Positions 5,666 to 62,807 of a stretch of DNA of 64,000 nucleotides are shown piece after piece; the first letter of the stretch is position 1, and the number at the start of each line of letters is the position of its first letter. The position numbers and the translations under genes are program-made. Source of the stretch: Candidatus Micrarchaeota archaeon (GTDB lineage: Archaea > Micrarchaeota > Micrarchaeia > Micrarchaeales > CABMGC01); NCBI GenBank assembly GCA_023270055.1, contig JAGDYB010000008.1:3438-67437 (forward strand). The letters run 5' to 3'. The notes beneath the pieces were generated by a model. It did no database searches, was not told where the DNA came from, and was given only the letters and a program-made list of their open reading frames with translations.

Positions 5666-8600
5666 TTGGCTGGCAAACATTTGACCATTTACACTCTTGC
5701 TCTAGCCTTCGCTTTATTCATGATAGTCTCTTTTGCCGAAGCCCCTACGGTTACCTACAATTATCAGTGTACTTCATCTACTTCCTACGATTACAACTGT
5801 CAGCTGACTGAAAACGTAATAACATACTATTCTGCGTCCACTGGGTTCTCTCAGTCGCAGTCCTCATCAAGTTCACAGGCAGCTAGTCCTGTAAATAACT
5901 ACAACTATAATAATGCCCCATGGCTTCTGACATGCCCTGTAACTCCATCGCAAAATCCAACCACCGATCTGTATTTCTATCCAGGCTATCCAGGAAGTGG
6001 CGGCGTGGCGAATGTCGGAGGTAATGCCTGTCAAATTACTTCATCATCATCAACTACGCAGGTCATACAGCAGCCTTGCTTAGAAGGCGCGCCGAACGGC
6101 TATTGTGGCTACTCTGCCTGCCCTTCTGGTTTTACCTGTGCAGGCTTGACCGGGCAACATGTTAGAAAGGAGAATGGGCAGTGTGCTACATCTGGTGGTG
6201 GCTATGCAGTTGGGAGTGAATGTGTCGGAAGTTCTTCACCAAGCCTTCTTACTACAGTAATCTTGCCAACGACTACATCAGGTGACGAGTACGATCTGGA
6301 GACGGCATCGCTCGGCTCGCTCTCAGTAACCAATCCCGCAACGCTCAGCATGACTAACCTCGCATATTCGCCAATGGTAAATTCAAACATTTCAAACGGC
6401 TTCAGCACAAATTCATACATATTCAGGCCGGTGCCATCGATGCCACAGAACGATCTTTGGACTTGGACCTCCGAATTTGTAAACTTCAGCACGACAAGCC
6501 CGTACCAGTATACGCTGCACGTGCCCGGCCTGACATACACCGAAACAGTAACGAACTCGAACACGCAAAACGGGGTGACGAGCACAAACTCAACCACATG
6601 CACATACTTGTACGATTTCAAACAGACAACAGAGCTGCAGCAGATAAGCAACAACTACATACCATTCAACGAAGTGCTGCCAACCACGCCCCCGTTCACC
6701 ACCTTCAACACCCCAATCCTGCCGTTCTTCACATACAACTTCAGCATGCCGTCGCTTTACCAGCAGTCCATGAATCTGTCTTATGATGTATATGGGCCTT
6801 GGAACTATTACACGCCGCAGAATTCAATCGACATGTTTCCTGTAGATGTAGGCCACAATCTGTATGTCAACTACTGCACAAGCAGTGGCTGCTCAACGCA
6901 ATACAGCAGCAGTGCCTTCTGCATAGGAAATCCAAACAACCCGATATGCCTTAACATGCCTGGCATGCCAAACATTCCTGGCAATGGCAATGGAAATGGA
7001 AATGGCATGCCTGGCATTGGCATAACGTTTCCCGGAGTAAAAAATCCACACATTGCGCAGCCTATTGCAATCGCCGCACTGCCAAACGATTACATATATA
7101 TATTAAATTCTACATCATCTGGTGGCTACAACATAACAATATTGAGACTTATACCGCACGGCTACTACAATACCTCTCCATACACCCCAAACAATGCAAG
7201 CCTTATCTCTTCGCAAGACAGCGAGGCTGCGTGGGTGAACCAGTGGAATGCATATTGGTCTAACATAATAAACCTGCAGAACACCTCTACTTACGTGCTC
7301 AAAACCATATCGGTATCAAATCATTTTTCCAATTTTAACCCCATGGGCATGGCGGTAAACATTTCAGGCTATGTCTACTTGACAGGCAACCTGACCAATC
7401 AAGCTGGCCTTGGTGTAGGTGCGCAGCCAGAGCTCGCAGTAATAACAAACACTCTGAGTGGCACCATGCAATTTATAAACGATACAATAAATGCGCCTGC
7501 AGTGATGCCCGAAATAGCTGTGTCGCCTTCAGGCAGGCTCGTATACCTTGCCAACCAGAGCGTGCCGGGCTATATATACGTATACAACGGATCATCCCCG
7601 ACATTTAACTCCCTGTACCAGATAAACCTCACGTTCGGGAAGGTTATTAGCCCAGGCAACACAGCTACGCTAAACATAACCTACTGGCTCGCAAACAACG
7701 GACTGTTTGGGCAATACATACCTTGGGTTGCGACTCAGGGGAACAACTACAACGAAAACCTTGATGTGCCTGAATTTCACCATCCTATAGGGCTTTATGA
7801 CGTTAACGGCTATCTCTACGTGCTTGACAACTGGGGCGGCCTGCTCAACGGCAATCTACAATCATGCGGAAACTGGTTTGGGGTAGGTTGTCCTTCAGGT
7901 CCCGTAAGTTTAAGTAATGCATTGTTCTTCGATATACTGTTGCTCAGGGCAATAAATTCGACCAATGCGAATGTGCCAATTAATCCGACAAAGTTCAACG
8001 ATATGTTTTCAACGTATACATGCGCCAATCCAACCTTAGGTCAAACCTCTATAAATCCTAGCACATGCTATTCATCTCAACTAAGTCCAAGCCCAACCTG
8101 CGGCGCCCACTGCACCCTTTCAACTTCATCCTGCGAGCAGAGCGCAAAATGCCCGGCTTACAATTACTGCTTCCTTGGCGGCACAACGCCAAGCTGCGGT
8201 TCACAATGCAATGCAGTGAAGGGAAATTCGTGCGATAAGGATAAAGGTTACTATTATACATGCCAGCCAAATACAGGCACTTCATACGCATGCGTTGCCT
8301 CTGGTTCTGGTTCGGGCAAAAAAAGCAGCACATATCTGTCGCTTGCAACATCGAGCTTCTTCCCTTATGATACCTATCCTCCGTACGGTTGGATACTTTC
8401 AGCCAACGTTTCATTGATTGGCAGCATGACAAATCTTGGTGATATAACCGGCACAAATGTATACAGCATTAACCCTTCCGAATACATATCAATTTCAGCA
8501 AACGGAATAATAAGCGGTCCACCTTCGGAAGAAATTACTCCGTACAATGCAATACCTTCCCAATATCCTCCGATAGGGCCACCAGTCACCGCAATATATA

Positions 8601-10987
8601 CTGCTGGCGTCAACAGCAATAACCCTAAGTTATGTCTTGGATATGGTTTGTGTATTGGCGGTTCTACAACTGTAAACAGGGCCATATGGAATGGTTCGCA
8701 AGAAGTCGGCGGCGCAAAGACAGCTGATGGCTTTGTACCATTCTATTATAATATTGGCTATTCAGTCAACTACAACCATACTGTCGACATGATATTTCCA
8801 AGCTTTTCTAGTAGCAGCGTACTCTCGTCCGAATGTCCAATTTTTTGGAGCTGCTATGCTTCAAACGCAAACATATACCCAGAGCTTGCGATATTGCACG
8901 CACCGATAGACAACTACACAAAGCTCTTTACAAGCGCAGGCGGTGAAACATGCTATTCAAGCAACAACTCAATAAACACCCCTAACGGAGCATGCTCATA
9001 TCTGCCTACTGTGGCAAACATGACTGCACCAGTGTACAGCGTCACCGATCCGTTAAAATATCTGGAGAATTTAGGAAGCTACAACCAATTCGTAACCTTT
9101 GGTGGCGCCACATCTTCAACATTCACTGGAGGCTCAGGCGCTCCGTCGAGCAACACCGTATGTGCTAACTCCATAGCATACAATGGAATAGGTAACTGCA
9201 ACGGTGCGTCGCTAAATTACAACAGCATATACACCTCTGCAAACAGCAATTATCTTAATCCAGCATCAACTGCATCATACGTATCTGATCTTGAGACGCT
9301 GAACAGCACGCTTAACGGTTATGTGATGATTCCATACTATTACTCTGACACAATGAGCTACTGGAGGTACAACGCGCAGCTGATTGCACAAACAACCCCA
9401 GTAAGCAGCGGACCTAACCCTCCGCCAGTAGCATGCCCTCCGGCAAGCAGTATCGACACCGGTCCAGTCACGACCAACTCATTGGTGTACACCGACGCTT
9501 TGGTTGATGGCAATTCAAACAAGCTCAGCAGCACCGTTGAGGGCGGCGATACATACTTCGAATACCCAAATACCTCGCACTACGTGCCATATCTTGGCGA
9601 CAACAACACGATAATACCTCCAGGCATATTCTTCCTCACACAGACAGACAGGATATTCGACAAGGTAATAGCTCTGCTCGAATTCAACATAACCGAGTAC
9701 TTCCTTAACCCTAATGAACCTCAATATAGTATAGCCAACCCTGAGGTGCTCAACGCAACAAGGCAGTTTGACTTCTATATAAATCAAATAACTCAGGACA
9801 GTGGTGCATATCCTGGTTACGAGACAATAACCATCTCCAGCAATCCTTCTTTCAACGTAGGAGATGAAAGTCCGCAATACTCATTCTCCCAGTTTTATAG
9901 CCCAAATGCTATAGGCTTCAACTACACCCCATTTTCAATTCCGACAGCAATGAACCTGTTCAACTGGTACAAGTTCAGATCGTATGAAAACCCCCTAAAG
10001 CTTTACCTTAATTCTACCAAGCTACTGGGGTACCACCGCTTCATGCTCAACTTCCTTGACACGTTCAACAATACTATACACGTGCCACTCGATGCTGATG
10101 TTGCCAATACAACAATAATATCGCTTTCGTCGAATCCGGCAGTAAACACAACAAATCCAAACCAGACAAATCTGTACATAAACGGCACTGTAACTTCGAT
10201 AGGATTTGGTGGCACGGAAAAGAATCTTAGCGGTGCACAAGTGTACCTGTACTTTGAAAAGAACATAAACTATGTGAACTTCAGTCCGGAGCAGAACCCG
10301 GTAAACGCGATGCTATGCGCATACACGAACACCATAGCGCCAAACAATTGCATACTTGCAAATCCGGTAATGCTAAATCTTCAAGCCAATTCAAGCATTG
10401 TCGACTTTTATCCGATGCTGAACAGCTCCGGTGCTTGCCCTATGCCGCCAAACAGCCTTCTGAATTATACGTATGGTACGCCATGCAACATTTATGGATA
10501 CGACGGCTTGCCTTCAAACTGCGGGCAGAATACATACAATCCTAATTATGCAGAATTCTGCCAGCCAATGTATGCAAATGGCACAGGCGTATGTACCTCA
10601 CAGCTGGGCCTCATGGCTATTGTTACTACAAATTCAAATGGTCAGTTCACCTACAACACCCTCGTATGTGGTGTTGGGAATCCAGAAATAATCGCCAAGT
10701 TCTACGGCTCGCCTTCACCACAGCCGGTGCAGATAACTCAGACCATACTCTCCAATTCCACATATTATGGCCCGATACCAGCGTATCCCGTATTCGCTGC
10801 GCTGCCTGTAACAATGAATGTGCTGAACTACACGCAGGCTCCAAATGCGAGTGCATTGCAGGTGCAGATAGGGCTTTTATACTTGAGCTACGGGAGCGTT
10901 GCAGTGTATGGCATCCTGGCAATCGCCGCGGCACTTCTCGTGATTGCCGCACGCAAAATAAAGATATTTAAATCAGAAAAGCGCTAA
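5666..10987 (+). CDS. Giant (1773 aa) cell-surface glycoprotein candidate (S-layer/adhesin-like)
   Basis: TTG start 10 nt after a GGTGG SD. Signal peptide MAGKHLTIYTLALAFALFMIVSFAEA. C-terminal TM helix plus basic tail (VAVYGILAIAAALLVIAARKIKIFKSEKR). Very many N-x-S/T sequons. NHL/YVTN-like beta-propeller repeat signatures (GYVYLTGN, GRLVYLANQ, GYLYVLDNWGG). A Cys-rich stretch and a GNGNGNGNG tract. Confidence 0.85.
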   Translation: MAGKHLTIYTLALAFALFMIVSFAEAPTVTYNYQCTSSTSYDYNCQLTENVITYYSASTGFSQSQSSSSSQAASPVNNYNYNNAPWLLTCPVTPSQNPTTDLYFYPGYPGSGGVANVGGNACQITSSSSTTQVIQQPCLEGAPNGYCGYSACPSGFTCAGLTGQHVRKENGQCATSGGGYAVGSECVGSSSPSLLTTVILPTTTSGDEYDLETASLGSLSVTNPATLSMTNLAYSPMVNSNISNGFSTNSYIFRPVPSMPQNDLWTWTSEFVNFSTTSPYQYTLHVPGLTYTETVTNSNTQNGVTSTNSTTCTYLYDFKQTTELQQISNNYIPFNEVLPTTPPFTTFNTPILPFFTYNFSMPSLYQQSMNLSYDVYGPWNYYTPQNSIDMFPVDVGHNLYVNYCTSSGCSTQYSSSAFCIGNPNNPICLNMPGMPNIPGNGNGNGNGMPGIGITFPGVKNPHIAQPIAIAALPNDYIYILNSTSSGGYNITILRLIPHGYYNTSPYTPNNASLISSQDSEAAWVNQWNAYWSNIINLQNTSTYVLKTISVSNHFSNFNPMGMAVNISGYVYLTGNLTNQAGLGVGAQPELAVITNTLSGTMQFINDTINAPAVMPEIAVSPSGRLVYLANQSVPGYIYVYNGSSPTFNSLYQINLTFGKVISPGNTATLNITYWLANNGLFGQYIPWVATQGNNYNENLDVPEFHHPIGLYDVNGYLYVLDNWGGLLNGNLQSCGNWFGVGCPSGPVSLSNALFFDILLLRAINSTNANVPINPTKFNDMFSTYTCANPTLGQTSINPSTCYSSQLSPSPTCGAHCTLSTSSCEQSAKCPAYNYCFLGGTTPSCGSQCNAVKGNSCDKDKGYYYTCQPNTGTSYACVASGSGSGKKSSTYLSLATSSFFPYDTYPPYGWILSANVSLIGSMTNLGDITGTNVYSINPSEYISISANGIISGPPSEEITPYNAIPSQYPPIGPPVTAIYTAGVNSNNPKLCLGYGLCIGGSTTVNRAIWNGSQEVGGAKTADGFVPFYYNIGYSVNYNHTVDMIFPSFSSSSVLSSECPIFWSCYASNANIYPELAILHAPIDNYTKLFTSAGGETCYSSNNSINTPNGACSYLPTVANMTAPVYSVTDPLKYLENLGSYNQFVTFGGATSSTFTGGSGAPSSNTVCANSIAYNGIGNCNGASLNYNSIYTSANSNYLNPASTASYVSDLETLNSTLNGYVMIPYYYSDTMSYWRYNAQLIAQTTPVSSGPNPPPVACPPASSIDTGPVTTNSLVYTDALVDGNSNKLSSTVEGGDTYFEYPNTSHYVPYLGDNNTIIPPGIFFLTQTDRIFDKVIALLEFNITEYFLNPNEPQYSIANPEVLNATRQFDFYINQITQDSGAYPGYETITISSNPSFNVGDESPQYSFSQFYSPNAIGFNYTPFSIPTAMNLFNWYKFRSYENPLKLYLNSTKLLGYHRFMLNFLDTFNNTIHVPLDADVANTTIISLSSNPAVNTTNPNQTNLYINGTVTSIGFGGTEKNLSGAQVYLYFEKNINYVNFSPEQNPVNAMLCAYTNTIAPNNCILANPVMLNLQANSSIVDFYPMLNSSGACPMPPNSLLNYTYGTPCNIYGYDGLPSNCGQNTYNPNYAEFCQPMYANGTGVCTSQLGLMAIVTTNSNGQFTYNTLVCGVGNPEIIAKFYGSPSPQPVQITQTILSNSTYYGPIPAYPVFAALPVTMNVLNYTQAPNASALQVQIGLLYLSYGSVAVYGILAIAAALLVIAARKIKIFKSEKR

Positions 10988-10992
10988 TTATA

Positions 10993-12285
10993 TTGATGCG
11001 TATGCCGTTGCAAATGCTGCTTGTCACGGTCCTGCTTTCCGTTGGCGCGGTTAACGCGCTTGTTCCGATAATAATAATACTCATACTTATAGCGGCAGCA
11101 GCTGCAGTGCGCGGAACAAACCTCCTTCAAATGTTCGGTATCTCCGCTTTAGCAGGCATAGGCATCGCTGGCAGAGGTTCGCTGTCGCAGCGCAACGCGT
11201 TTAACATGCCCGCACGAAGCCTGTTGTCAGGCAAGGTAAAGAAAAACTTAGGGCCGATTAAAAATAAGATCTCAAAAAAGATAGATCCATACAGTGGCGA
11301 CAAGAAAATTCAAAATTATCAAAAGCAGCTGTTAGGGCACGAAATAACCCTTGCGCAGTATAAAACCCTATATAACAAACGCAAGCAAGAGATAGACAAA
11401 GAACTGAAACTGCAAAAAGTGCAAAAGAAATGGCAAAGGTCCGGCTCTGGAAGCGCCATCATGGGTAATGCGGTGGAAGAAGAATTAAACAGGAATACGA
11501 TTAAGGTCAAATTTAGGAAAGAAAAAGATAATGGAATATTAATATCGCCTTTGTACGCAGGCACAACAGGAGGTTTGCTCTACCGCAATGCCAAAAAGTA
11601 TGCAGTGGGGAAGGAGGGTAAGCCGGTGAAAATACCTAAAAATATGACAAAGGCTGAGAGATCGCTCAAAAAGATAGTGAACAGCGAAAAGGCATCAGCT
11701 TATGAGAAGGCGATGGCTCAGGAGCAGTTGGATACGCTCGGCAGCTTGCGACACCAGCTTACGGAAATGCAGCACAGCGAGGCTGCAAAAATGAAGGAGT
11801 TCAACAAGAAGAGAGACGCAGCGCTTAAAGATTTGGAAAAGAAGCGCCAATCTGGGGAGATAACAAAGAATGAATACAAAAAAGGAAAAGAAGCGCTGCG
11901 TAAAGAGGAGCTTGAAATGAAGAGGAATTTCTTCGAAAAACATGCTTCAACATTCAAAAACTGGTATGAGAATGAGTGGGTGCCGAACGTAGAGCTGAAA
12001 ACTATTGTGAGCCAGCGCAACGCGCTTGACCAGAAATTCCTTAAGGGGGAAGTAACGAAAGAGCAATACCGGAAGGAACTTTCCGACATAAAGAATCATC
12101 TTGAATATATAGCACCAAATGGGGAATACGATACCCACACCATGCAAAATGACATAAACTACAAGCTTGAGAAAGGCATATTCCCAAAGAAGGAGTGGAG
12201 CCCTGAAAGAGAGTCAACTAGGGGCATAAAAGAGTTTGAAGAAAGAAGCAGAATAAACAAAAGAATAAACAAAAAGCTGAAGTGA
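10993..12285 (+). CDS. Membrane-anchored Lys/Glu-rich coiled-coil protein
   Basis: N-terminal hydrophobic helices (LLVTVLLSVGAVNALVPIIIILILIAAAAA) are followed by about 350 aa of K/E-rich, low-complexity helical sequence. It lies 5 nt after the giant surface protein gene. The start could be ATG at 10996. Confidence 0.7.
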   Translation: MMRMPLQMLLVTVLLSVGAVNALVPIIIILILIAAAAAVRGTNLLQMFGISALAGIGIAGRGSLSQRNAFNMPARSLLSGKVKKNLGPIKNKISKKIDPYSGDKKIQNYQKQLLGHEITLAQYKTLYNKRKQEIDKELKLQKVQKKWQRSGSGSAIMGNAVEEELNRNTIKVKFRKEKDNGILISPLYAGTTGGLLYRNAKKYAVGKEGKPVKIPKNMTKAERSLKKIVNSEKASAYEKAMAQEQLDTLGSLRHQLTEMQHSEAAKMKEFNKKRDAALKDLEKKRQSGEITKNEYKKGKEALRKEELEMKRNFFEKHASTFKNWYENEWVPNVELKTIVSQRNALDQKFLKGEVTKEQYRKELSDIKNHLEYIAPNGEYDTHTMQNDINYKLEKGIFPKKEWSPERESTRGIKEFEERSRINKRINKKLK

Positions 12286-12569: not shown

Positions 12570-12666
12570 GGGCTCTTAGCTCAACGGTAGAGCGTCCGCT
12601 TTGCAGGCGGAAGGTTGCGGGTTCGAATTTGGCTTCTGCGAGGCCACGAAAATCCCGCAGAGTCCA
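12570..12666 (+). tRNA. tRNA-Ala(UGC) with a ~25-nt non-canonical intron in the T-arm (12629-12653)
   Basis: Fold: GGGCTCT TA GCTC AACGGTA GAGC G TCCGC TTTGCAG GCGGA AGGTT GCGGG TTCGAAT [TTGGCTTCTGCGAGGCCACGAAAAT] CCCGC AGAGTCC A. It has the G3:U70 alanine identity pair. The cloverleaf closes only if the bracketed insert is removed. A TTTATAA box lies about 30 nt upstream. No CCA is encoded. Confidence 0.85.
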
Positions 12667-37352: not shown

Positions 37353-37700
37353 TCACTTTCTGCGAATTGAAAAATTGGCGCCCTCTACGCTTTGCAGCGC
37401 ATCGGCCCACACCTTAACCCTGGCTTCAGCAATCCGTCTTGGCGCGTCGCTGAGCATGGCAAGCCCCCTCTCGTTAAGACGGTAACTGTTGTTGCGTTTT
37501 TCAACAAAAAGTGCAAGCGGCAGGCGGTTCAATTGTGAGTAGAATTCATCGATGCTGTCCCTGAGAAATTTGATACCAACACCAGCGTAATCCGCTATTT
37601 CATCTGCTGTCCTCGTGCCGTGCCCTATATATAGTATTATTTTGGCAAGCAACGGCGCCACAGCATTAGCATCGTCTATTGCGCTACACTCTTTATCCAC
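37353..37700 (-). CDS. Small winged-helix (wHTH) DNA-binding protein, divergent from the T4SS-like operon
   Basis: 115 aa. ILYIGHGTRTADEIADYAGVGIKFLRDSIDEF...NNSYRLNERGLAML fits an HTH plus wing pattern. Confidence 0.6.
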   Translation of the reverse strand: MDKECSAIDDANAVAPLLAKIILYIGHGTRTADEIADYAGVGIKFLRDSIDEFYSQLNRLPLALFVEKRNNSYRLNERGLAMLSDAPRRIAEARVKVWADALQSVEGANFSIRRK

Positions 37701-37867: not shown

Positions 37868-37912
37868 CCGCTTCCTTTGGCGTTGCCACAATTTTCTATT
37901 AAGGCGTCTACC

Positions 37913-37966
37913 AAAATATTTATATATTTATTTAAGTATATAATTTTGTATCAAAGTATAAGGTGA
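37913..37966 (+). promoter_or_regulatory. Putative promoter and SD of the T4SS-like operon
   Basis: The A/T-rich stretch aaaatatttatatatttatttaagtatataattttgta has several TATA-like boxes. AGGTGA (37961-37966) lies 4 nt before ATG 37971. Confidence 0.5.
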
Positions 37967-37970
37967 ATAC

Positions 37971-38357
37971 ATGTGGGGAAGCAGCAATAAAAGCAGAATT
38001 GTTGCAGTAATAGAGCGCGCGGCGTTGAAATCTTTGATTGTAATTGGCCTATTTGGGGCTAGAAACGCATATGCATCAGGTGTGGTGTCGCTAGATATTG
38101 TCGGAACTATATCCTACATACAGCAGATTCTCATGCATATAGGTCCGGCACTGAGTGCCACACTATTCATAACTGCTGGCATCTTCTATGCGATAGGGCA
38201 GCTTCTGCCACCAGACAAGAGGGCAAATTTCCATACAACCTCTATAAACATAATAATAGGCGCGGTCACCATAGCGGTGCTTTCGGTTGCATCCGGCGGC
38301 CTTGCTGTCGCCTCATCGCATCTCCTTGCAAATGCGTCCTCAAACTCGCTGACGTGA
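37971..38357 (+). CDS. VirB2/TrbC (CedA1/TedC)-like conjugative-type pilin candidate
   Basis: 128 aa. Sec-type signal peptide ending ARNAYA|SG. The mature ~90 aa form two hydrophobic helices (IGPALSATLFITAGIFYAIGQLL and INIIIGAVTIAVLSVASGGLAVA) joined by a basic loop, PPDKRANFH. This is the helix-loop-helix layout of T4SS pilins. Confidence 0.6.
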   Translation: MWGSSNKSRIVAVIERAALKSLIVIGLFGARNAYASGVVSLDIVGTISYIQQILMHIGPALSATLFITAGIFYAIGQLLPPDKRANFHTTSINIIIGAVTIAVLSVASGGLAVASSHLLANASSNSLT

Positions 38358-38358
38358 T

Positions 38359-39396
38359 TTGTTGCCAAGCATTTACCCATTTGGCACATATGGCTTTGGC
38401 CTGTCAATAGATATAATAGGTATAATGATGGGCATAAGCGGCATTATCCTTGGATTCGGTTACGCGTTTGACGACAAAAAACTAAAGGAGTTTGGAAGAA
38501 GTGAACTCTACCAGTCAATGATAAACGTGGCGCTGGTTGTATTTCTTCTCTCGCTATTCATGCCGGGCGGTATTGTCACTGGCGTAATAAGCACGTTGGT
38601 AGGGAAGAGTCCCGCCACATTCAGCTGTCCCGAATACATGTCAGGAAACAGCGCAATATGCCTTGCATATTCATATCTTGCCGGTCCCGGCGGCTACACA
38701 TTCAACGGTATAGCGTATCAGTCGCTTTTTTCAATCATAATGGAAGTTTTCCTAGCAGTTACCGCTTTGATTGTAATACTCGGCGGCATCTCTTCGCTTT
38801 CGCTAAGTTTCCTATTCGCGAAGATTAACTTTGCGCCCATGGTAACTCCTTTTCTTCATGAAATGCAGTACATGCTTGACATAGTAACGTCAATGGCGAT
38901 AAGCGTGCTTGTACAGGCATCAATACTTTCGTTTGTAGCGATAGCTGCTGTTGCGGTAATACTTCCAACCGGCATAGTGCTGCGTGCATTCTACCCGTCA
39001 AGAAAGCTTGGCGGCTTTTTGATAGCATCTGCAATAGGCCTTTATGTAGTTCTACCCCTCTCATATCTGTTCAACATATATATGCTTTATTCATATACAA
39101 GCGGCCTAAACGAGACAAGCATGCAGGCGACTGTTGCGAGCGCTAGTTCTGCGGAGAATCTTTTGCTTAACGCAACAAACGCATCGTCTTCGGTAGTGCA
39201 TCTTGTATCTTCAACAAACTCGCTGCTCAGTTCAATCTCATACCTGCTGGATTCACTTTTTTCCTTTGTTGCCAACTTCATAGTAAAGACATTTATTCTT
39301 CCGATATTTAGCCTCATACTCACAGGCATATCGATAAGGGAGCTTGCCGCAATGCTTGGTTCAGAGGCGTTTTTTGGCAAATTCAAAATATTGTAG
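38359..39396 (+). CDS. Polytopic (6-7 TM) membrane protein, VirB6/TrbL/CedA-like by position and topology
   Basis: 345 aa with about 7 hydrophobic helices and a Cys-containing external loop (FSCPEYMSGNSAICLAY). It starts 1 nt after the pilin stop. The start codon is uncertain (TTG 38359 or ATG 38427). Confidence 0.55.
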   Translation: MLPSIYPFGTYGFGLSIDIIGIMMGISGIILGFGYAFDDKKLKEFGRSELYQSMINVALVVFLLSLFMPGGIVTGVISTLVGKSPATFSCPEYMSGNSAICLAYSYLAGPGGYTFNGIAYQSLFSIIMEVFLAVTALIVILGGISSLSLSFLFAKINFAPMVTPFLHEMQYMLDIVTSMAISVLVQASILSFVAIAAVAVILPTGIVLRAFYPSRKLGGFLIASAIGLYVVLPLSYLFNIYMLYSYTSGLNETSMQATVASASSAENLLLNATNASSSVVHLVSSTNSLLSSISYLLDSLFSFVANFIVKTFILPIFSLILTGISIRELAAMLGSEAFFGKFKIL

Positions 39397-39404
39397 GGGG
39401 ATTC

Positions 39405-40118
39405 ATGATAGGAGAATATCTAGCATGCAAATCGATAGGAATCTACATAACATACTCGCTGATGGGAATATTCCTCATACTTTCCGTGTTCACCCTTAAT
39501 GCTTATGTGATATCACTTGGTGTTGTTGCTTGCCTTGTCTCGCTTGCATACCTGAAAATGCACAATGTGATAGAAGCAATATTCTTGAAAAAGTCCAGGA
39601 TCACAGTTTCCAACGGTGCATACATACTAAATTCTGCTTTGGACGCGGCGGTTAAGAAGACTGAAGACGGCTACGAGGCAATTTCTGCAGCCGTGCTAGA
39701 GCCAGGAGGTGAGATAAGGAACAGCGAAGGTATAACCGACATAATAAACAAGTCAAAATCCCCATTCGAATTTAGCGTTGTGGTCAGCAGCCTCAACGCA
39801 AAGAAGTTCATAGAGCATATAGAGACAAGGCGAAACATTGCCGAAATAAACCTTTCAAAAGTCGGTGGTGACAGCAGAAAAAGCAACGCCATAAGGAGGG
39901 AAATAGAGATGCTTGACGGCGAGATAGCATCAATAGCAAAGGGCGGCGCGCCTATGGACATAACAATACGGCTCAAGGTATTTGGCCATGGCTACAGCAT
40001 AGCCGAGGCGTCTGCCAACGCGAAGAGAAGCATGGAAGGCATGCTTTCGCTGTTCGCATCATCGCTAGGCGCAGGCTACAGCGTGCTCAAGGGGGAAGAT
40101 TTGCTGGGGGTTGTATAG
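39405..40118 (+). CDS. 2-TM (VirB3-like hairpin) protein with soluble domain, possible N-terminal half of a split VirB4-like ATPase
   Basis: 237 aa. Two N-terminal TM helices, then a ~170-aa soluble domain. GGGGGA SD. It ends 7 nt before (or overlaps) the ATPase ORF. Confidence 0.55.
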   Translation: MIGEYLACKSIGIYITYSLMGIFLILSVFTLNAYVISLGVVACLVSLAYLKMHNVIEAIFLKKSRITVSNGAYILNSALDAAVKKTEDGYEAISAAVLEPGGEIRNSEGITDIINKSKSPFEFSVVVSSLNAKKFIEHIETRRNIAEINLSKVGGDSRKSNAIRREIEMLDGEIASIAKGGAPMDITIRLKVFGHGYSIAEASANAKRSMEGMLSLFASSLGAGYSVLKGEDLLGVV

Positions 40119-40125
40119 TGGTTAT

Positions 40126-41250
40126 ATGAGTATCAAGTTGACTCCGGCAAGCGTATCAAAGCTTATATGCATGCCATACTCAGACGATCCTTCAGCAGAA
40201 GCTGCACTTAAGCTCGCTTCATCATGCATATACATCGGAAGGACGCTGCATAGGTCAATACCTTATTTTCTAGATTTCAGCCAGCTCATAAATCCGCATG
40301 TATTCGCGATTGGCATGACCGGCAGCGGCAAGAGCTATCTAATAAGGTCGCTGGCGCTGAAGCTTGGCATTTTTATGAATGTGGCTGTGCTTATAATAGA
40401 CTTTACCGGCGAGTATGCCGAGCTATCACAGTTCGGAAACAACGCTGGAGAAGGGGACATAGAGGTAGTGCTGGAAGAGACACATCAGGGCGTAATCTAT
40501 GTGGACCTTTCTGAATATGGTGAAGCAAAGAAGGTGGAGAGTGCAAAGAGGATCCTAAGCGCTATAATAGTGCGCATGCGCGCCAGCAGGGCTGATTCAG
40601 AGCTGAAGTTCTTCACAGTAATAGATGAGGCGTGGAAGCTTCTGCTGGGAAGCGGGCTCGTGGAAACGCTGGTTAGGGAGGGAAGAAAATATGGATATGG
40701 TGTGATAATCGCTTCCCAGATGCTTGGCGATGCAGGCGCCGGTATCGCCTCCAACATAGGCACGTTATTCGTGTTCAGGGTCAACGATTCGTCATCGCTG
40801 CAGAAACTTTCGGATAACTATGCCCTGGACGAGAAGAAAACGTCTGCGATCAAAGATTTGAACGTAGGTTCATGCCTTGTAATCCAAGTTTTCAAAAGGG
40901 AAGGTATGGCAAGGTTTTTCATAGAAAGGGTCAGCGGCGTAGAATATTTGAATAGAATAACAATTATCGTGGGTGGAAAAATGGAAGTAGAGGTCGGCGA
41001 GGAAAAATTCAACCAGATAATGGCGGAGCTCGGAATATCTGGCGCTTCGCTTGCAGAGCTCAAGGGGCTCATGGTTGGAGGCACGATAAGGTTACCTGCA
41101 CTTTTGGCGTGGCTAATATTGCATGGCGCGGATAGGGAGCTCGTGTTGTACAAATTCAGGCGTTTGGGGCTTAGCGACGATACGCTTGCGGACAATTATG
41201 CAAACGCATTGGTGGAAGTGGTCAGTGATGGGCGAAACAAAAGAACGTGA
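40126..41250 (+). CDS. VirB4/TrbE/HerA-superfamily P-loop ATPase (ATPase 1)
   Basis: Walker A PHVFAIGMTGSGKSYLIRS, Walker B FFTVIDEAWKLL (a DEAW signature common in VirB4/TrbE) and REGRKYGYGVIIASQ. An alternative TTG start at 40111 overlaps the upstream ORF by 8 nt. Confidence 0.75.
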   Translation: MSIKLTPASVSKLICMPYSDDPSAEAALKLASSCIYIGRTLHRSIPYFLDFSQLINPHVFAIGMTGSGKSYLIRSLALKLGIFMNVAVLIIDFTGEYAELSQFGNNAGEGDIEVVLEETHQGVIYVDLSEYGEAKKVESAKRILSAIIVRMRASRADSELKFFTVIDEAWKLLLGSGLVETLVREGRKYGYGVIIASQMLGDAGAGIASNIGTLFVFRVNDSSSLQKLSDNYALDEKKTSAIKDLNVGSCLVIQVFKREGMARFFIERVSGVEYLNRITIIVGGKMEVEVGEEKFNQIMAELGISGASLAELKGLMVGGTIRLPALLAWLILHGADRELVLYKFRRLGLSDDTLADNYANALVEVVSDGRNKRT

Positions 41251-41914
41251 AAAGCTTGGTTTGCACATGTCAGTGCCTATAAGTGCAAGGCTTACCTCAA
41301 CATTCGGAGCAGTAAAACACTCCCTTTCCGCATATCCTGGGGTTTCATTGGTTCAAGATGGAACTACCCTAAGATATCAGCTCAACGCTAGCGAAGAATC
41401 GAGTACATATTACGTGGAGCTGGCAAGAGAGTATATCCTTATCGAGGTGTTTTCCGATACGTCGCCCATATACCTAATGGAATCCTGTCTGGTGAAGCTT
41501 CTTTCTGTATGCTCTATGCTGCGCGGCGAATATGTGTTCAAGATCGAGAGCCTTTTCCCCTACATTATCTATGCGCTTGAATCTCAGAAGATTGACGCGT
41601 TGGCAGCATCAGTTGCAGCAGCTCGTCAAGATTACCGTTATACTGATATAATCTTGGCAAAGAGAATAATGGCGCTTTCATTCAGCATAGGAGAGAAAGA
41701 CAAGGCAATATCTTTGCTTGAGGATACCGTTGCACAGCTCACTGCAGATATGATAATAATGCTTGCCGCCAGTGGCGCCGTTGATGGCACTTCGCTGCAC
41801 GCAAAGTATGGTATAAGCATCGATACACTGAAGCGCTCTCTTGAGATTATACGTTCAGCTGGTTACAGGATCATTTACAAGCCTGGTGGCAAGTTTGTAC
41901 TGGCGAGGCAATGA
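41228..41914 (+). CDS. Cytoplasmic hypothetical protein with C-terminal wHTH-like segment (operon member)
   Basis: The start at 41228 is preceded by GGAAGTGG and overlaps ATPase 1 by 23 nt. The C-terminus ISIDTLKRSLEIIRSAGYRIIYKPGGKFVL looks like a winged helix. Confidence 0.55.
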   Translation: MGETKEREKLGLHMSVPISARLTSTFGAVKHSLSAYPGVSLVQDGTTLRYQLNASEESSTYYVELAREYILIEVFSDTSPIYLMESCLVKLLSVCSMLRGEYVFKIESLFPYIIYALESQKIDALAASVAAARQDYRYTDIILAKRIMALSFSIGEKDKAISLLEDTVAQLTADMIIMLAASGAVDGTSLHAKYGISIDTLKRSLEIIRSAGYRIIYKPGGKFVLARQ

Positions 41915-42546
41915 ATCCGGTCGCAAGCTTGTTTTCGCAGGAAATTCCAATACTAATCGGGGCAGCTATATTCGTTCTTGTGGCAAAGTTTAGGTTTGAA
42001 AGGCGAAAAATAAGCATAGAAGTTAGTGAGGAGGCATTAGCTATTAACGATGTTGTTTCATCGCATGAGTGTCAAATACCTGCAGCACAGCGTACAATGC
42101 CTCGTAGCCTCCCTGTGGATTTTCGCGAAATTTTTCCTGTTTTGAACGACAATGCAAGGTTCGTACCTTTGCTTTGCGGAGAATATGAAAAGTACTTTTA
42201 CTGGCACGGATTTATCGGCAACGGCGATTCACTAAAACGCGAAGCCATAATGTTGCATATCTACGAAAGGCTGATTACCGAAGGCAAGCTTCGAAAAGGC
42301 GATTTTAAGTGGCTTAACAGACGCAGTATATATCGCATCGGATTCAGCGAACTTGGCATGCTTCCCATATTTATGGTTTACAAACTACATAGCATGGAAT
42401 CAGTAGTCAAGCCCAACACTATCAATATCCTAATGTCTCAAGACGATACCAGCAAGCTTCTTCTTTCGCTCCTCTCATTTTCTCCCGTCTCAGGCATGCT
42501 TCTTTCATATTTGTCATTGCAAAACTTAAGCGTGCAGGTGGTCTGA
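41911..42546 (+). CDS. Single-pass membrane protein (operon member)
   Basis: ATGA overlap with the upstream gene. N-terminal TM helix IPILIGAAIFVLVAKF. 211 aa. No recognisable domain. Confidence 0.55.
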   Translation: MNPVASLFSQEIPILIGAAIFVLVAKFRFERRKISIEVSEEALAINDVVSSHECQIPAAQRTMPRSLPVDFREIFPVLNDNARFVPLLCGEYEKYFYWHGFIGNGDSLKREAIMLHIYERLITEGKLRKGDFKWLNRRSIYRIGFSELGMLPIFMVYKLHSMESVVKPNTINILMSQDDTSKLLLSLLSFSPVSGMLLSYLSLQNLSVQVV

Positions 42547-42749
42547 TGATTCAGCTGCTTTTCGATTTGGCAAGGGAAGTTGCCGCAATAAGCGGCGCGA
42601 TTGAGGGAATGCTGCTCAGCATATCGATGCTTAAAAGAATATTCTGGCGCGCTTCACCTGCAGTACAGCCACTCCTTCCAAGCATCTACAGGGCGTTCGG
42701 GCTACTGTTCGCCATATCAGCAGCAGTGGTGATAATATGGATGACATGA
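42546..42749 (+). CDS. Small (67 aa) membrane protein (operon member)
   Basis: GGTGG SD and start overlapping the previous stop (TGATG). C-terminal TM helix AFGLLFAISAAVVIIW. Confidence 0.45.
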   Translation: MIQLLFDLAREVAAISGAIEGMLLSISMLKRIFWRASPAVQPLLPSIYRAFGLLFAISAAVVIIWMT

Positions 42750-43012
42750 CTATTATTTACAAGCGGCTAAACAATGGCAACGAGCATGCGGCAAAGATCT
42801 TGCTTTCGGTATCGCTGTCAGCGGCAGTTTCGACAGTGATTGAAACATTGCTAGGTCATGCCTCGCCCAAGGCATTCCTATTGCTGTGCCTGGTTTTTGG
42901 TTTTATGCTATATAGACGTAGGTCGGCGCAGGACGTGCCGCTTGGCAATCTATTGCTAATGTCAGTCGCAGTTGTGACAATACTTTTTGTTGAGGCAGTT
43001 GTGTGCGCATAA
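42737..43012 (+). CDS. Small (91 aa) 2-3 TM membrane protein (operon member)
   Basis: GGTGA SD. Hydrophobic helices ILLSVSLSAAVSTVIETLL, FLLLCLVFGFMLY and LLLMSVAVVTILFVEAVV. Confidence 0.5.
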   Translation: MDDMTIIYKRLNNGNEHAAKILLSVSLSAAVSTVIETLLGHASPKAFLLLCLVFGFMLYRRRSAQDVPLGNLLLMSVAVVTILFVEAVVCA

Positions 43013-43022
43013 AGGAGATCAA

Positions 43023-45254
43023 ATGCAAAAAATTTTCGAAATGATAGAAGTGCCGGTGGATTTGGACTATGAGATGCTGCTGAACTCGTTTTTGGGGAGG
43101 CAGTTTATAATGCACCACGATTTGTCAAGCTCAAAGACATACGTTGTTGCTGATTCGGATTGGCCAGAAATAGCCCGCAATGCCATAGCGGGGCTAACAA
43201 CTGTGGCGGCGAGCGGCAGCTTTAAGCTAAATAACCCTCTGCTGGCAGTAGTCTATGTTCCGTCAGCATCGCCAAGTGCAAAGGCTCAAGAGTCAGGGCA
43301 ACTGCTTGGTGCATTGTACAATCTGTTTTCAGGTACTGACGCACAAGTTTCGATCGCTTTTGCTCCGGGAAACCTTGAGGATGCAAGGCGCATAAAGGGT
43401 AGAGTTGAGGAGCTGCTCAGCAGGATAGCGACAAGGGCAACAAAAAGCTACTCAAATAAAGCAACAATTTCATCTTCAACCTCGCTGCAATCAGATATCT
43501 ATTATAATTCAGATGACAAGGTTTTGTTCTCGAACATGCTAGATAACCTTAACAGCATAATCGCAATGAATGGAACCTCTTATAAGGCGCTTATTGTTCT
43601 TTCCGGCGAATACGAGCAGATACTTTCATACATAAAATCAAAGCTGCTTGTTATGGAAATGCATAAGATAAACGTCAGCAGTTTGGAAGAGCTTGCAGAT
43701 ATCGCTTGCAGCATAGAGGCAATGCCATTGAACCATTCTATATTATCGCGTCTGTTTGTCTTTTCAGAACGCATATTGCGCATCGCAAGATCCAATGTCC
43801 AAGTACCGCGCCAGTCTGGCAACATAGATCTTGGCGTGTTCCTGGACAGAGCCGTATCCCCATCAGGTACCCATGTCATGCTAGACGCATCAACCTTAAA
43901 TCTTGGCACTATAGTAACGGGCATGCCAGGCACGGGCAAGACAACATTGGTAATGTCAATGCTGAGCCAACTAAATGCACTCGCTGAAAAACCGGTAATG
44001 GCAATAATATCGCCTACCCACGAGTGGTCTGCATTTGCCAATGCGAATGGGTTGAACTTCTTTCAGCTTTATGAATCTAAACTTCCAGTGAACTTTTTTA
44101 CCTGCTATGACGCGGCGTCGAAGGAGAAATACTATGAGAATCTTGCAATGCTTCTTGCAAACGCATCGGTCGCCGGCCCATATAAAAATTCGCTTGAGAA
44201 AAGCTTGCTTGCAGCCTTCAGGAAAGTGTATTCCCTCACATTGAATCCTGATCCTGTGGAAATGTATTATACTATAGAGGAAACGGTAATAGAACAACAT
44301 GCAACAAAGACAAATGTTGGGGTGAAATATACAAAACACGGCGAAAACATAAGAGCTGCACTTGAGAACTTGCGCCTGCTTCTGTTCCGGCCTGAGTTTG
44401 CCACAAAAGATGGCATCAACATGATGTCATTTCTGAAAGGGGGTGCAGTCTTCGATCTTTCCAAAGTGAGCAACAGTATGAAGCAGTTCTACTACTCTTT
44501 GATACTTAATATTGTATACGCATTCTCTGAAAATTTTGACGAAAATGCGGATAACGAAAGGAAGCTGAAGCTCGTGATAGTGCTTGATGAGGCGCAGGAA
44601 GTGATAAATGCCGATGAGACATCCGCAGTTGTTCTCGATTTGAAGCAGAGGATACAGGATTTTAGAAAAAAGGGCATAGGTATAGTGCTGATAACGCACA
44701 ATCCAATTGACATAAGTGGTAGTATACGCAGGGTATGTCAGACAAAAATATATTTTAGGCAAAGTGCAGACATGGTGAAATATTCCGCTACCGATTTAGG
44801 ATTTATTGAGCAGGATTCAAGTACCATGAGCCTTCTTAGGGGTTTAGGCGAGCGAACTTTTGTACTTGATTATGTTAGGCGTGATGACGTCACTGGCTAT
44901 GCATCTCCTGCCGGCCCAATTTTTGTAAGATCAAAAGAATATGCACTTCCTGCTGGTGAGGCTCAGCCAACTAGCCTTAATTGCAATCTGCACGGCGATG
45001 TTTGCGATTGCAAAATTTACATCCGAGATCGGGAAAAGGCGCCGCTCGCACTCGCAGAAGTTAAGTTGTTCTATTTGGGTGAGCTTGTGTCAGAGTCGAA
45101 AACCGATGAGGCTGGAAAAGTGGTTTTCAATGGGTTGCTGAGAGGCAAGAAATACTCACTGCAATTGCCCGCCAAAAAGAAAAAGGATACAAGAATCTTC
45201 CAATTCAGCGCTCAGGACAACATAGATATAACCGCTGACGTACCTAAACAATGA
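43023..45254 (+). CDS. VirB4/CedB/HerA-type ATPase (ATPase 2) with C-terminal Cys cluster and beta-sandwich-like domain
   Basis: ATG 43023 is preceded by AAAGGAG. A ~290-aa N-domain is followed by LNLGTIVTGMPGTGKTTLVMS (Walker A), KLVIVLDEAQEV (Walker B) and GIGIVLITHNP. The C-terminal ~90 aa, CNLHGDVCDCKIYIRDREKAPLALAEVKLFYLGELVSESKTDEAGKVVFNGLLRGKKYSLQLP, resemble a carboxypeptidase-regulatory-like fold. Confidence 0.75.
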   Translation: MQKIFEMIEVPVDLDYEMLLNSFLGRQFIMHHDLSSSKTYVVADSDWPEIARNAIAGLTTVAASGSFKLNNPLLAVVYVPSASPSAKAQESGQLLGALYNLFSGTDAQVSIAFAPGNLEDARRIKGRVEELLSRIATRATKSYSNKATISSSTSLQSDIYYNSDDKVLFSNMLDNLNSIIAMNGTSYKALIVLSGEYEQILSYIKSKLLVMEMHKINVSSLEELADIACSIEAMPLNHSILSRLFVFSERILRIARSNVQVPRQSGNIDLGVFLDRAVSPSGTHVMLDASTLNLGTIVTGMPGTGKTTLVMSMLSQLNALAEKPVMAIISPTHEWSAFANANGLNFFQLYESKLPVNFFTCYDAASKEKYYENLAMLLANASVAGPYKNSLEKSLLAAFRKVYSLTLNPDPVEMYYTIEETVIEQHATKTNVGVKYTKHGENIRAALENLRLLLFRPEFATKDGINMMSFLKGGAVFDLSKVSNSMKQFYYSLILNIVYAFSENFDENADNERKLKLVIVLDEAQEVINADETSAVVLDLKQRIQDFRKKGIGIVLITHNPIDISGSIRRVCQTKIYFRQSADMVKYSATDLGFIEQDSSTMSLLRGLGERTFVLDYVRRDDVTGYASPAGPIFVRSKEYALPAGEAQPTSLNCNLHGDVCDCKIYIRDREKAPLALAEVKLFYLGELVSESKTDEAGKVVFNGLLRGKKYSLQLPAKKKKDTRIFQFSAQDNIDITADVPKQ

Positions 45255-62664: not shown

Positions 62665-62807
62665 GGGGTTGTAGCGTAACCTGGCAGCGCAGCAGGCTCC
62701 AGATGTTTTAAAATGTTATGAGCCAAGTGCGATGATGAGGATTTGGAGCGGTGATTCGTGATATCAGGCGTTACCTGCTGGTCGGGGTTCAAATCCCCGC
62801 AACCCCA
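62665..62807 (+). tRNA. tRNA-Trp(CCA) with ~70-nt anticodon-loop intron (about 62703-62772) carrying box C/D guide elements
   Basis: Fold: GGGGTTG TA GCGT AACCTGGCA GCGC A GCAGG CTCCAG [intron] A CCTGC TGGT CGGGG TTCAAAT CCCCG CAACCCC A. The intron contains ATGATGA (62732-62738), the 12-nt spacer GGATTTGGAGCG, GTGA (62751-62754) and GTGATA. The ORF listed at 62643-62936 is spurious. Confidence 0.88.

Follow-up and report, generated by a model that had tools for sequence, protein, structure and literature searches.

It remains to be established how DPANN archaea acquire DNA, nucleotides, lipids and proteins from their hosts, and we know of no dedicated transfer apparatus described in Micrarchaeota. 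A 64,000-nucleotide (nt) stretch of contig JAGDYB010000008.1 from a Candidatus Micrarchaeota archaeon (this whole stretch is called the window below) carries nine tightly packed genes at positions 37971-45254 of the + strand that bear on this question: does this operon encode a machine related to type IV secretion systems (T4SS), as a preliminary description of the sequence had proposed, and if so, what would it move? The reading that we favour, with a probability of roughly 0.6, is that the operon specifies a minimal T4SS-related machine of the Ced/Ted kind, chromosomal and vertically inherited across Micrarchaeota. One point in favour of a T4SS-like reading is that the order of the first genes (pilin, polytopic protein, transmembrane (TM)-hairpin protein, ATPase) mirrors tedC-tedA and prgH-prgI-prgJ. 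Pilin similarity, ATPase relatives of Ced/VirB4 type and co-conservation of the membrane genes were all found, so that the proposal of the preliminary description stands in part.

All nine open reading frames (ORFs) are present on the + strand, as read from the window sequence; their start codons are those that a gene caller chose in a 97%-identical contig. With these starts, the junctions from ORF1 to ORF9 measure +1, +8, +7, -23, -4, -1, -13 and +10 nt, in agreement with the co-directional arrangement and the spacing of -23 to +10 nt given earlier. Eight of the nine starts have a purine-rich GGTG/GGAG-like motif ahead of them (ORF2, which starts with TTG, has a weak motif only), which likewise bears out the statement that Shine-Dalgarno motifs stand ahead of most ORFs. 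Upstream of ORF1, at 37900..37970 (+), an AT-rich stretch containing aaaatatttatatatttatttaagtatataatttt is followed by a Shine-Dalgarno-like AAGGTGA 7 nt 5' of the ATG, and this stretch is read as a putative promoter region. The GC content of the cluster, 0.45-0.475, is the same as in the rest of the window.

The predicted pilin and the two ATPases

ORF1 (37971..38357, +; 128 residues) has the features of a VirB2/TrbC-type pilin precursor. A Sec-type signal peptide, ending at an A-x-A-like site (between NAYA and SG), is followed by a helix-loop-helix mature part in which the basic loop PPDKRANFH joins two hydrophobic helices ahead of a C-terminal tail; the signal peptide and the two helices, as judged from hydropathy, are those described previously. 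The family alignment follows the same plan, with a variable signal peptide and its A-x-A-like end preceding a conserved core of about 85 residues (helix, hydrophobic helix, loop GQLxPxxKRAxFH, hydrophobic helix, tail), and an N-x-S/T sequon is conserved in the C-terminal tail (window 38240-38357). The window protein by itself matches the Pfam family T4SS_pilin with E=0.0017 (18.8 bits, below the gathering score of 26.6). Across the family, T4SS_pilin (PF18895) is matched by 31 of 47 members (best 3.3e-7) and TrbC/VirB2 (PF04956) by 29 of 47 (best 1e-6); any other Pfam family is matched by at most 6 of the 47. When the ORF1 profile was compared with the PDB, TrwL (the VirB2 protein of R388) was the sole natural protein aligned over the pilin core, with an E of 0.35 that is not significant alone; by hhalign, the two align with E=7.2e-5 (probability 63%), helix 1, loop and helix 2 being in register. 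Because of the Pfam matches in about two-thirds of the family and of the TrwL alignment, we accept ORF1, on sequence criteria, as a VirB2-type pilin, the identity that had been suggested for it.

VirB4-family ATPases, which combine an N-terminal CagE_TrbE_VirB domain with a C-terminal motor, are the one ubiquitous T4SS protein, and FtsK/HerA motors are typically DNA pumps. ORF4 (40126..41250, +; 374 residues, or 379 from a TTG at 40111) is a soluble P-loop ATPase of the FtsK/HerA superfamily in which the motifs quoted in the preliminary description (GMTGSGKS, IDEAW and GYGVIIASQ) were located; it consists of the motor and a C-terminal helical domain of about 80 residues, without an N-terminal domain. 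Both AAA_10 (5.5e-14) and DUF87 (8.7e-14) are matched above the Pfam cut-offs. Among 18,950 NCBIfam models, the best for ORF4 is CedB (2.5e-19; 69 bits against a cut-off of 700), followed by TraC (8e-13), TcpF, CedD and HerA, all far below their cut-offs. The ORF4 family profile retrieved from the PDB HerA (1.7e-21), EccC/FtsK and VirB4 (4ag5, 4.8e-9). An AlphaFold model with a predicted local distance difference test score (pLDDT) of 89 gave by Foldseek HerA (2e-12), DndH, EccC, TrwK/VirB4 (5e-9), TcpA (7e-9) and 4ag5 (1e-8). As modelled, ORF4 is thus an FtsK/HerA-superfamily motor, which fold comparison places no finer.

ORF9 (43023..45254, +; 743 residues, or 755 from a TTG at 42987) is a second soluble ATPase, carrying GMPGTGKT and VLDEAQ as quoted before. 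It aligns with ORF4 by hhalign with a probability of 97.7% and E=1.7e-12, as divergent paralogues do, and differs from it by an N-terminal domain of about 290 residues, an insertion of about 110 residues between Walker A and Walker B, and a beta-sandwich-like C-terminal domain (weak bMG3, SpaA and CarboxypepD_reg matches). The VirB4_CagE model aligns with the window ORF9 from Walker A to B (E=3e-4); the cut-off of this model is 643 bits, of which ORF4 reaches 24 and ORF9 19. When 27 ORF9 relatives were compared with NCBIfam, CedD was matched in 16 (best 7e-14; cut-off 600 bits), the VirB4-like CD1110 in 10 (best 8.4e-10; cut-off 325 bits), VirB4_plasma, the VirB4 of a mycoplasma integrative conjugative element (ICE), also in 10, CedB in 5 and HerA in 1. 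The HerA equivalog models score 26-29 bits on the cluster ATPases, against cut-offs of 800-970. By sequence, then, the nearest named relatives are CedB for ORF4 and CedD for the ORF9 family, followed by the VirB4 proteins of monoderm conjugation, none at membership level. The label of VirB4/HerA-type ATPases given to both proteins is therefore apt as regards the superfamily, with CedB, CedD and VirB4-like CD1110, and not the HerA repair helicases, as best named relatives. In Sulfolobales, CedB and CedD are themselves paralogues, both essential for DNA import, and have been proposed to replace VirB4 jointly (PMC11868833).

The other components and the conservation of the operon

ORF2 (38359..39396, +; 345 residues) is a polytopic membrane protein with 6-7 TM helices in hydropathy plots and in the AlphaFold model, close to the seven announced. 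The model (pLDDT 84, predicted template modelling score 0.78) contains very long helices (159-210, 212-250 and 279-332); two Cys are conserved in the first large loop, and a sequon-rich disordered loop rich in S, T and N covers about residues 250-276 (window 39075-39240). This loop and the N-x-S/T sequon of the pilin tail would fit surface exposure, and they suggest N-glycosylated segments facing the outside. At E<=1e-3 a profile search gathers 2,316 representative proteins, an unannotated family. CedA (NF041796) is the top recurrent NCBIfam match of distant ORF2 relatives, a faint one (3 of 71, best E=1.6e-4), and is matched neither by the window ORF2 nor by six subfamily consensus sequences; Pfam TrbL has no match among 50 family members. 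The N-terminal hairpin of ORF2 and the pilin can be aligned in the same register as has been reported for CedA and CedA1, at an E of 0.033 that is not significant. A match to an ABC-transporter TM region (E=3e-5) was judged compositional because it covers the low-complexity loop and helices. Going by its place in the operon and its number of TM helices, we describe ORF2 as analogous to VirB6, CedA or TedA in position and topology.

ORF3 (39405..40118, +; 237 residues) has, by hydropathy, the N-terminal TM hairpin and the soluble domain described earlier, the latter of about 185 residues with a coiled coil. Because basic residues follow TM2, the sequence suggests that this domain is cytoplasmic. 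To judge from its position and topology, ORF3 may anchor the ORF4 ATPase to the membrane or serve as its adaptor, in the place taken elsewhere by VirB3 or PrgI. A homologue search with ORF3 returned the near-identical relative only, and the idea that its soluble domain is homologous to the N-terminal domain of ORF9 was dropped (hhalign probability 0.3%).

The remaining proteins are more loosely defined. ORF5 (41228..41914, +; 228 residues) is soluble and consists of an N-terminal domain, a coiled coil and a C-terminal winged-helix-like domain. The winged-helix tail attributed to it is backed by a weak signal (Pfam HTH_11, E=4e-4; scattered winged-helix families across members; weak winged-helix matches in the PDB), and, like ORF4 and ORF9, it has no TM helix by hydropathy. 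ORF6, ORF7 and ORF8 had been described as three small membrane proteins, which suits the last two. ORF6 (41911..42546, +; 211 residues) has one N-terminal TM helix and basic residues, after which most of the protein is a soluble domain of poor conservation (mean column identity 19% in an alignment of 32 members); it matches no Pfam or NCBIfam family. ORF7 (42546..42749, +; 67 residues) has one clear TM helix in the window copy; in most loci arranged like the window's, an ORF of 60-70 residues with usually 2 predicted TM helices and low sequence conservation stands in its place. Its candidacy as a second pilin failed, since the hhalign comparison with the pilin family was not significant. ORF8 (42737..43012, +; 91 residues) is a small protein with 2-3 TM helices directly 5' of the large ATPase, and ORFs of 80-105 residues with 2-3 TM helices occupy this position in most such loci. 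ORF7 and ORF8 are too divergent for detection by hidden Markov models (HMMs), and their counterparts were matched by position, size and number of TM helices. The components without a recognisable family, counted earlier as five, are in fact six: ORF2, ORF3, ORF6, ORF7, ORF8 and, but for its weak winged-helix tail, ORF5.

For the conservation of the operon, one genome per GTDB species was scanned, which gave 189 stretches encoding a relative, and iterated HMMs of the window proteins were mapped onto all ORFs of the best 80 of the 189 loci; nearly all of these 80 are labelled Micrarchaeota, Micrarchaeia or Anstonellales. Three types of cluster are found. Type A, that of the window (about 43 loci), reads ORF1 (125 residues), ORF2 (345), ORF3 (240), ATPase (370), ORF5 (226), ORF6 (150-200), two small membrane proteins and ATPase (740). 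Type B (about 14 loci) reads ORF1 (81 residues, no signal peptide), ORF2 (310), ORF3 (260), ATPase (478) and ORF5 (232). Type C (about 22 loci) has up to six tandem ORF2 paralogues, two copies of ORF3, an ATPase (500), a gene of about 100 residues equal to the ORF4 C-terminal domain, and ORF5. The smaller, paralogous types have the core ORF1-2-3-ATPase-5 in common with type A, and at least six genomes hold types A and C together. ORF3 stands directly 5' of the ATPase in all three types, and ORF5, also kept in all three, was mapped in 77 ORFs of the loci; ORF6, by contrast, is restricted to type A (35 ORFs mapped by HMM).

The type A order is kept in about 43 species-level genomes whose ATPases are 28-42% identical. 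Three ORF4 homologues (32-39% identity) stand in the same nine- or eight-gene arrangement between different housekeeping flanks. Dozens of divergent genomes show this order of families, so the arrangement is more than chance. The neighbourhood comparison called for at the outset brought out that the membrane genes and the ATPases are strictly kept together, and that they lie on chromosomes. In the window, genes for a diphthamide synthase (Dph2) and ribosomal protein L16/L10e lie upstream of the operon. Downstream lie Nre, whose gene is convergent with ORF9 and overlaps its end, and genes for an M24 peptidase, tRNA-Pro and Sua5. L16 is found upstream in about 13 type A loci, as in the window, and other genes elsewhere. 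No integrase, relaxase, replication gene or repeat boundary was found among the nine proteins or their neighbours, and no second copy of the cluster within the window. The conserved order, the housekeeping flanks, the L16 neighbourhood and the absence of mobile-element genes argue for a chromosomal, vertically inherited system and not a mobile element. ORF4 and ORF2 have their best homologues in metagenome-assembled genomes of Micrarchaeota/Micrarchaeia; these and the archaeal housekeeping flanks identify the source as a DPANN archaeon, which the preliminary description had left conditional.

Some further variation was seen among the relatives. The tandem ORF2 paralogues of type C are divergent and 344-650 residues long (loci L075-L084 and L059; e.g. 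L077:26-11862). Some ORF2-like domains are also N-terminal in giant proteins of 1313-1457 residues without a Pfam domain (L086:5786-20374, P0353, 1457 residues), whose genes stand in runs of further large unannotated genes, in what looks like another variant of the system. Two loci with ATPase relatives carry other taxonomic labels, Methanobacteriota (L068, QIGD01000087.1) and Marsarchaeota (L082, JAMCYP010000009.1); mis-binning or mislabelling of the contigs may account for this, or else the system may extend beyond the phylum.

Known systems and competing explanations

Among known machines, Ced of Sulfolobales (CedA, CedA1, CedA2, CedB, CedD and CedE), which upon DNA damage imports chromosomal DNA in dependence on Ups pili, resembles the operon in being chromosomal, not mobile and devoid of a relaxase. 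Both comprise a VirB2-like pilin, polytopic and small membrane proteins, and two paralogous HerA/VirB4-like ATPases, and the CedB-like plus CedD-like pair within the operon parallels the situation in Sulfolobales. The differences are these: the CedB and CedD models, although the best for ORF4 and the ORF9 family, reach about one-tenth of the equivalog cut-offs, neither ATPase has detectable TM helices or N-terminal domains of the CedB/CedD type, ORF2 is not demonstrably CedA, and ORF3, ORF5 and ORF6 have no Ced counterpart. Moreover, the operon holds all nine genes together, and its host belongs to DPANN and not to Crenarchaeota. ORF1 has a cleavable signal peptide, like TedC and bacterial pilins, whereas CedA1 is reported to be unprocessed (PMC9905601).

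In the Ted system of Thermoproteales (TedC, TedA, TedB), a gene for a VirB2-like pilin with a signal peptide is followed directly by one for a protein of about 7 TM helices, as here; Ted is chromosomal too and has extra HerA-like ATPases in its neighbourhood (PMC9905601). TedB, however, is a complete VirB4 that includes the N-terminal domain, whereas in the operon the ATPase adjacent to the membrane genes is reduced to the motor domain; nor is any ParA or Rad50 gene linked to the operon. In pCF10 (MPF-FATA), prgH-prgI-prgJ encode a polytopic protein, a small TM-hairpin protein and an ATPase, in the order of ORF2-ORF3-ORF4. Unlike monoderm T4SS, however, the operon has no detectable homologue of PrgH, PrgI or PrgL, no cell-wall hydrolase and no coupling protein of VirD4/TcpA type; its ATPases have also diverged much further, and two soluble paralogues stand in place of a single motor. 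A parallel in lifestyle is the T4SS of Patescibacteria, near-universal in that group and essential for epibiotic growth (PMC12102498), which like the operon is chromosomal, relaxase-less, equipped with VirB2-like pilins and borne by an ultra-small episymbiont.

Under the reading that we favour, ORF1 would be exported by Sec, cleaved at its A-x-A-type site, held in the membrane as a two-helix hairpin and polymerised into a thin VirB2-type pilus or a short conduit, probably containing lipid. ORF2, aided by ORF7 and ORF8, would form the membrane platform or channel, to which ORF3 and ORF6 would tether the cytoplasmic motors. ORF4 (CedB-like) and ORF9 (CedD/VirB4-like), of hexameric type, would power pilin extraction and/or substrate movement. 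If the substrate is a nucleic acid, ORF5 with its winged helix and ORF4 with its C-terminal helical domain may be the parts that handle it. That the nine parts assemble into one apparatus is an inference, as are the channel role of ORF2 and the anchoring roles of ORF3, ORF6, ORF7 and ORF8. As both ATPases have DNA-import ATPases as nearest relatives and the accessory domains are winged-helix or helical, DNA is the leading guess for the substrate, and DNA import or export, or exchange with a host, would be the function.

Several results weigh against a T4SS-related machine. Neither ATPase score approaches any curated family cut-off, the VirB4 N-terminal domain PF03135 was not detected in the ATPases by Pfam and profile searches, and HerA-type helicases outrank VirB4 in the PDB-profile and fold searches with ORF4. 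No VirD4-type coupling protein with TM helices, relaxase or DNA-processing gene is linked to the cluster (hydropathy finds no VirD4-type N-terminal TM helix on ORF4 or ORF9, and the matches to TrwB_AAD_bind span the P-loop region only). The solved archaeal pilins CedA1 and TedC were not retrieved from the PDB by the ORF1 profile. The earlier proposal that ORF2 is a VirB6 homologue found no support: neither the window protein nor the family profile found a relative in Pfam, NCBIfam or PDB sequences, 50-71 family members and consensus sequences searched with Pfam/NCBIfam were equally unsupportive, hhalign against the VirB6 proteins TrwI and PrgH gave probabilities below 1%, and Foldseek with the confident (pLDDT 84) model found nothing better than E=0.37 in the PDB. 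ORF3 matched nothing in Pfam or the PDB, nor TrwM, TrwG, TrwK or PrgI, so that its identification as VirB3, as the VirB4 N-terminal domain or as VirB8 was rejected. ORF6 has no similarity to VirB8, and ORF8, another candidate for VirB3, none to TrwM or PrgI.

A rival explanation is an unrelated HerA-driven membrane complex, acting for example in chromosome segregation or division, membrane remodelling or defence, in which the likeness of ORF1 to pilins would be compositional. In the PDB and Foldseek searches ORF4 does match HerA proteins best, among them the anti-phage SIR2-HerA, and it shares with HerA the ATPase core fold and motifs; ORF2, ORF3, ORF6, ORF7 and ORF8 bear no T4SS signature, and single ORF1 matches mostly fall under the Pfam gathering score. 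Yet two independent VirB2 families, and nothing else recurrently, are matched by about two-thirds of the ORF1 homologues, and the alignment with TrwL runs in register over both helices and the loop. HerA helicases stand in an operon with the NurA nuclease, often with Mre11 and Rad50; NurA, Mre11 and Rad50 are absent from the window cluster and from four related loci, and the operon has no SIR2 or DUF4297 partner either. Its ATPases are instead strictly linked to a pilin and membrane proteins, and HerA models score below those of CedB, CedD and VirB4-like proteins. FtsK/SpoIIIE proteins, for their part, comprise an N-terminal membrane domain, a motor and a C-terminal gamma winged-helix domain; the FtsK_SpoIIIE match here is below cut-off (E=0.013), and ORF4 and ORF9 lack TM helices. 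We consider such a complex unlikely. Still less probable, to the point that we set it aside on context, is a reading of the cluster as belonging to an integrated conjugative element or plasmid remnant, whose transfer module it would be. Archaeal conjugative elements do have VirB4-/VirD4-like ATPases and no recognisable relaxase (PMC9905601, PMC12857230), and a tRNA-Pro gene lies 2.3 kb downstream of the cluster; but the GC content equals that of the surroundings, housekeeping genes flank both sides in place of an integrase, replication gene or repeat boundary, and the same L16/Dph2 neighbourhood recurs in distant species, with the cluster in about 43 species-representative genomes. Repair-module, defence-system and mobile-element readings are thus all poorly supported.

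A serious alternative, of clearly lower probability than the reading we favour, keeps the T4SS-like apparatus and changes its cargo: a host-attachment or contact device moving proteins, lipids or small molecules instead of DNA, a role that has been proposed for the relaxase-less chromosomal T4SS of Patescibacteria (PMC12102498). It draws on the membership of the organism in a DPANN episymbiont lineage, on the lack of a relaxase or DNA-processing partner in or beside the cluster, on the Patescibacteria precedent and on the ORF2-like genes of related clusters, up to six in tandem or fused into giants, which look like diversification of a partner-facing surface. The ATPases speak for DNA, however, both through their nearest named relatives, which are DNA-import ATPases, and through the usual role of FtsK/HerA motors, as do the winged-helix domain of ORF5 and the helical C-terminal domain of ORF4; and Ced and Ted are relaxase-less too and yet move DNA.

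Full-text literature searches brought up no account of a T4SS- or Ced-like system in Micrarchaeota. Those published for archaea comprise the Ced and Ted systems of Crenarchaeota, the conjugative plasmids and ICEs of Sulfolobales and Nitrososphaeria, and pT33-3, a conjugative plasmid of Thermococcus; in nanohaloarchaea, giant proteins contain a VirB4-like domain. The link through the ATPase is not wholly new, because some ORF4 homologues are already automatically annotated as 'type IV secretory system conjugative DNA transfer family protein'; the operon, its pilin, the phylum-wide conservation, the three paralogous types and the six unannotated families appear to be undescribed. The T4SS-related reading would make the operon a concrete, phylum-wide candidate for a transfer apparatus, with ORF1 as predicted subunit of an extracellular filament. 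It would extend domesticated conjugation machinery of the Ced/Ted type beyond Crenarchaeota, place a CedB/CedD-like ATPase pairing in a distant lineage and define several unannotated protein families, among them that of the ORF2 relatives, which number over 2,300 representative clusters. The operon would also parallel the essential chromosomal T4SS of Patescibacteria. We raise tentatively, as a doubtful extension, that the vertically inherited and highly derived T4SS-like machine, present phylum-wide in up to three paralogous versions that include expanded and giant ORF2-like surface components, is a symbiont-host conduit retained independently in DPANN and Patescibacteria; if true, the same class of machine would lie at the core of the ultra-small episymbiotic lifestyle in both.

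Other features of the window

Divergent from the operon, an ORF of 115 residues (37353-37700, -) without a family match is kept only in the 97%-identical relative. It was considered as a conserved regulator and rejected, the wider HMM matches being ribosomal L16 ORFs and hence an artefact. Two Rfam tRNA matches were unreported by ARAGORN: one over 143 nt (62665-62807, +), probably an intron-containing gene, and a partial one (12577-12633, +; model positions 8-63, 31.5 bits). Finally, an ORF of 1773 residues followed by one of 430 residues occupies 5666-12285 (+); neither has a Pfam match, and the region may encode a giant surface protein like those reported in other DPANN archaea.

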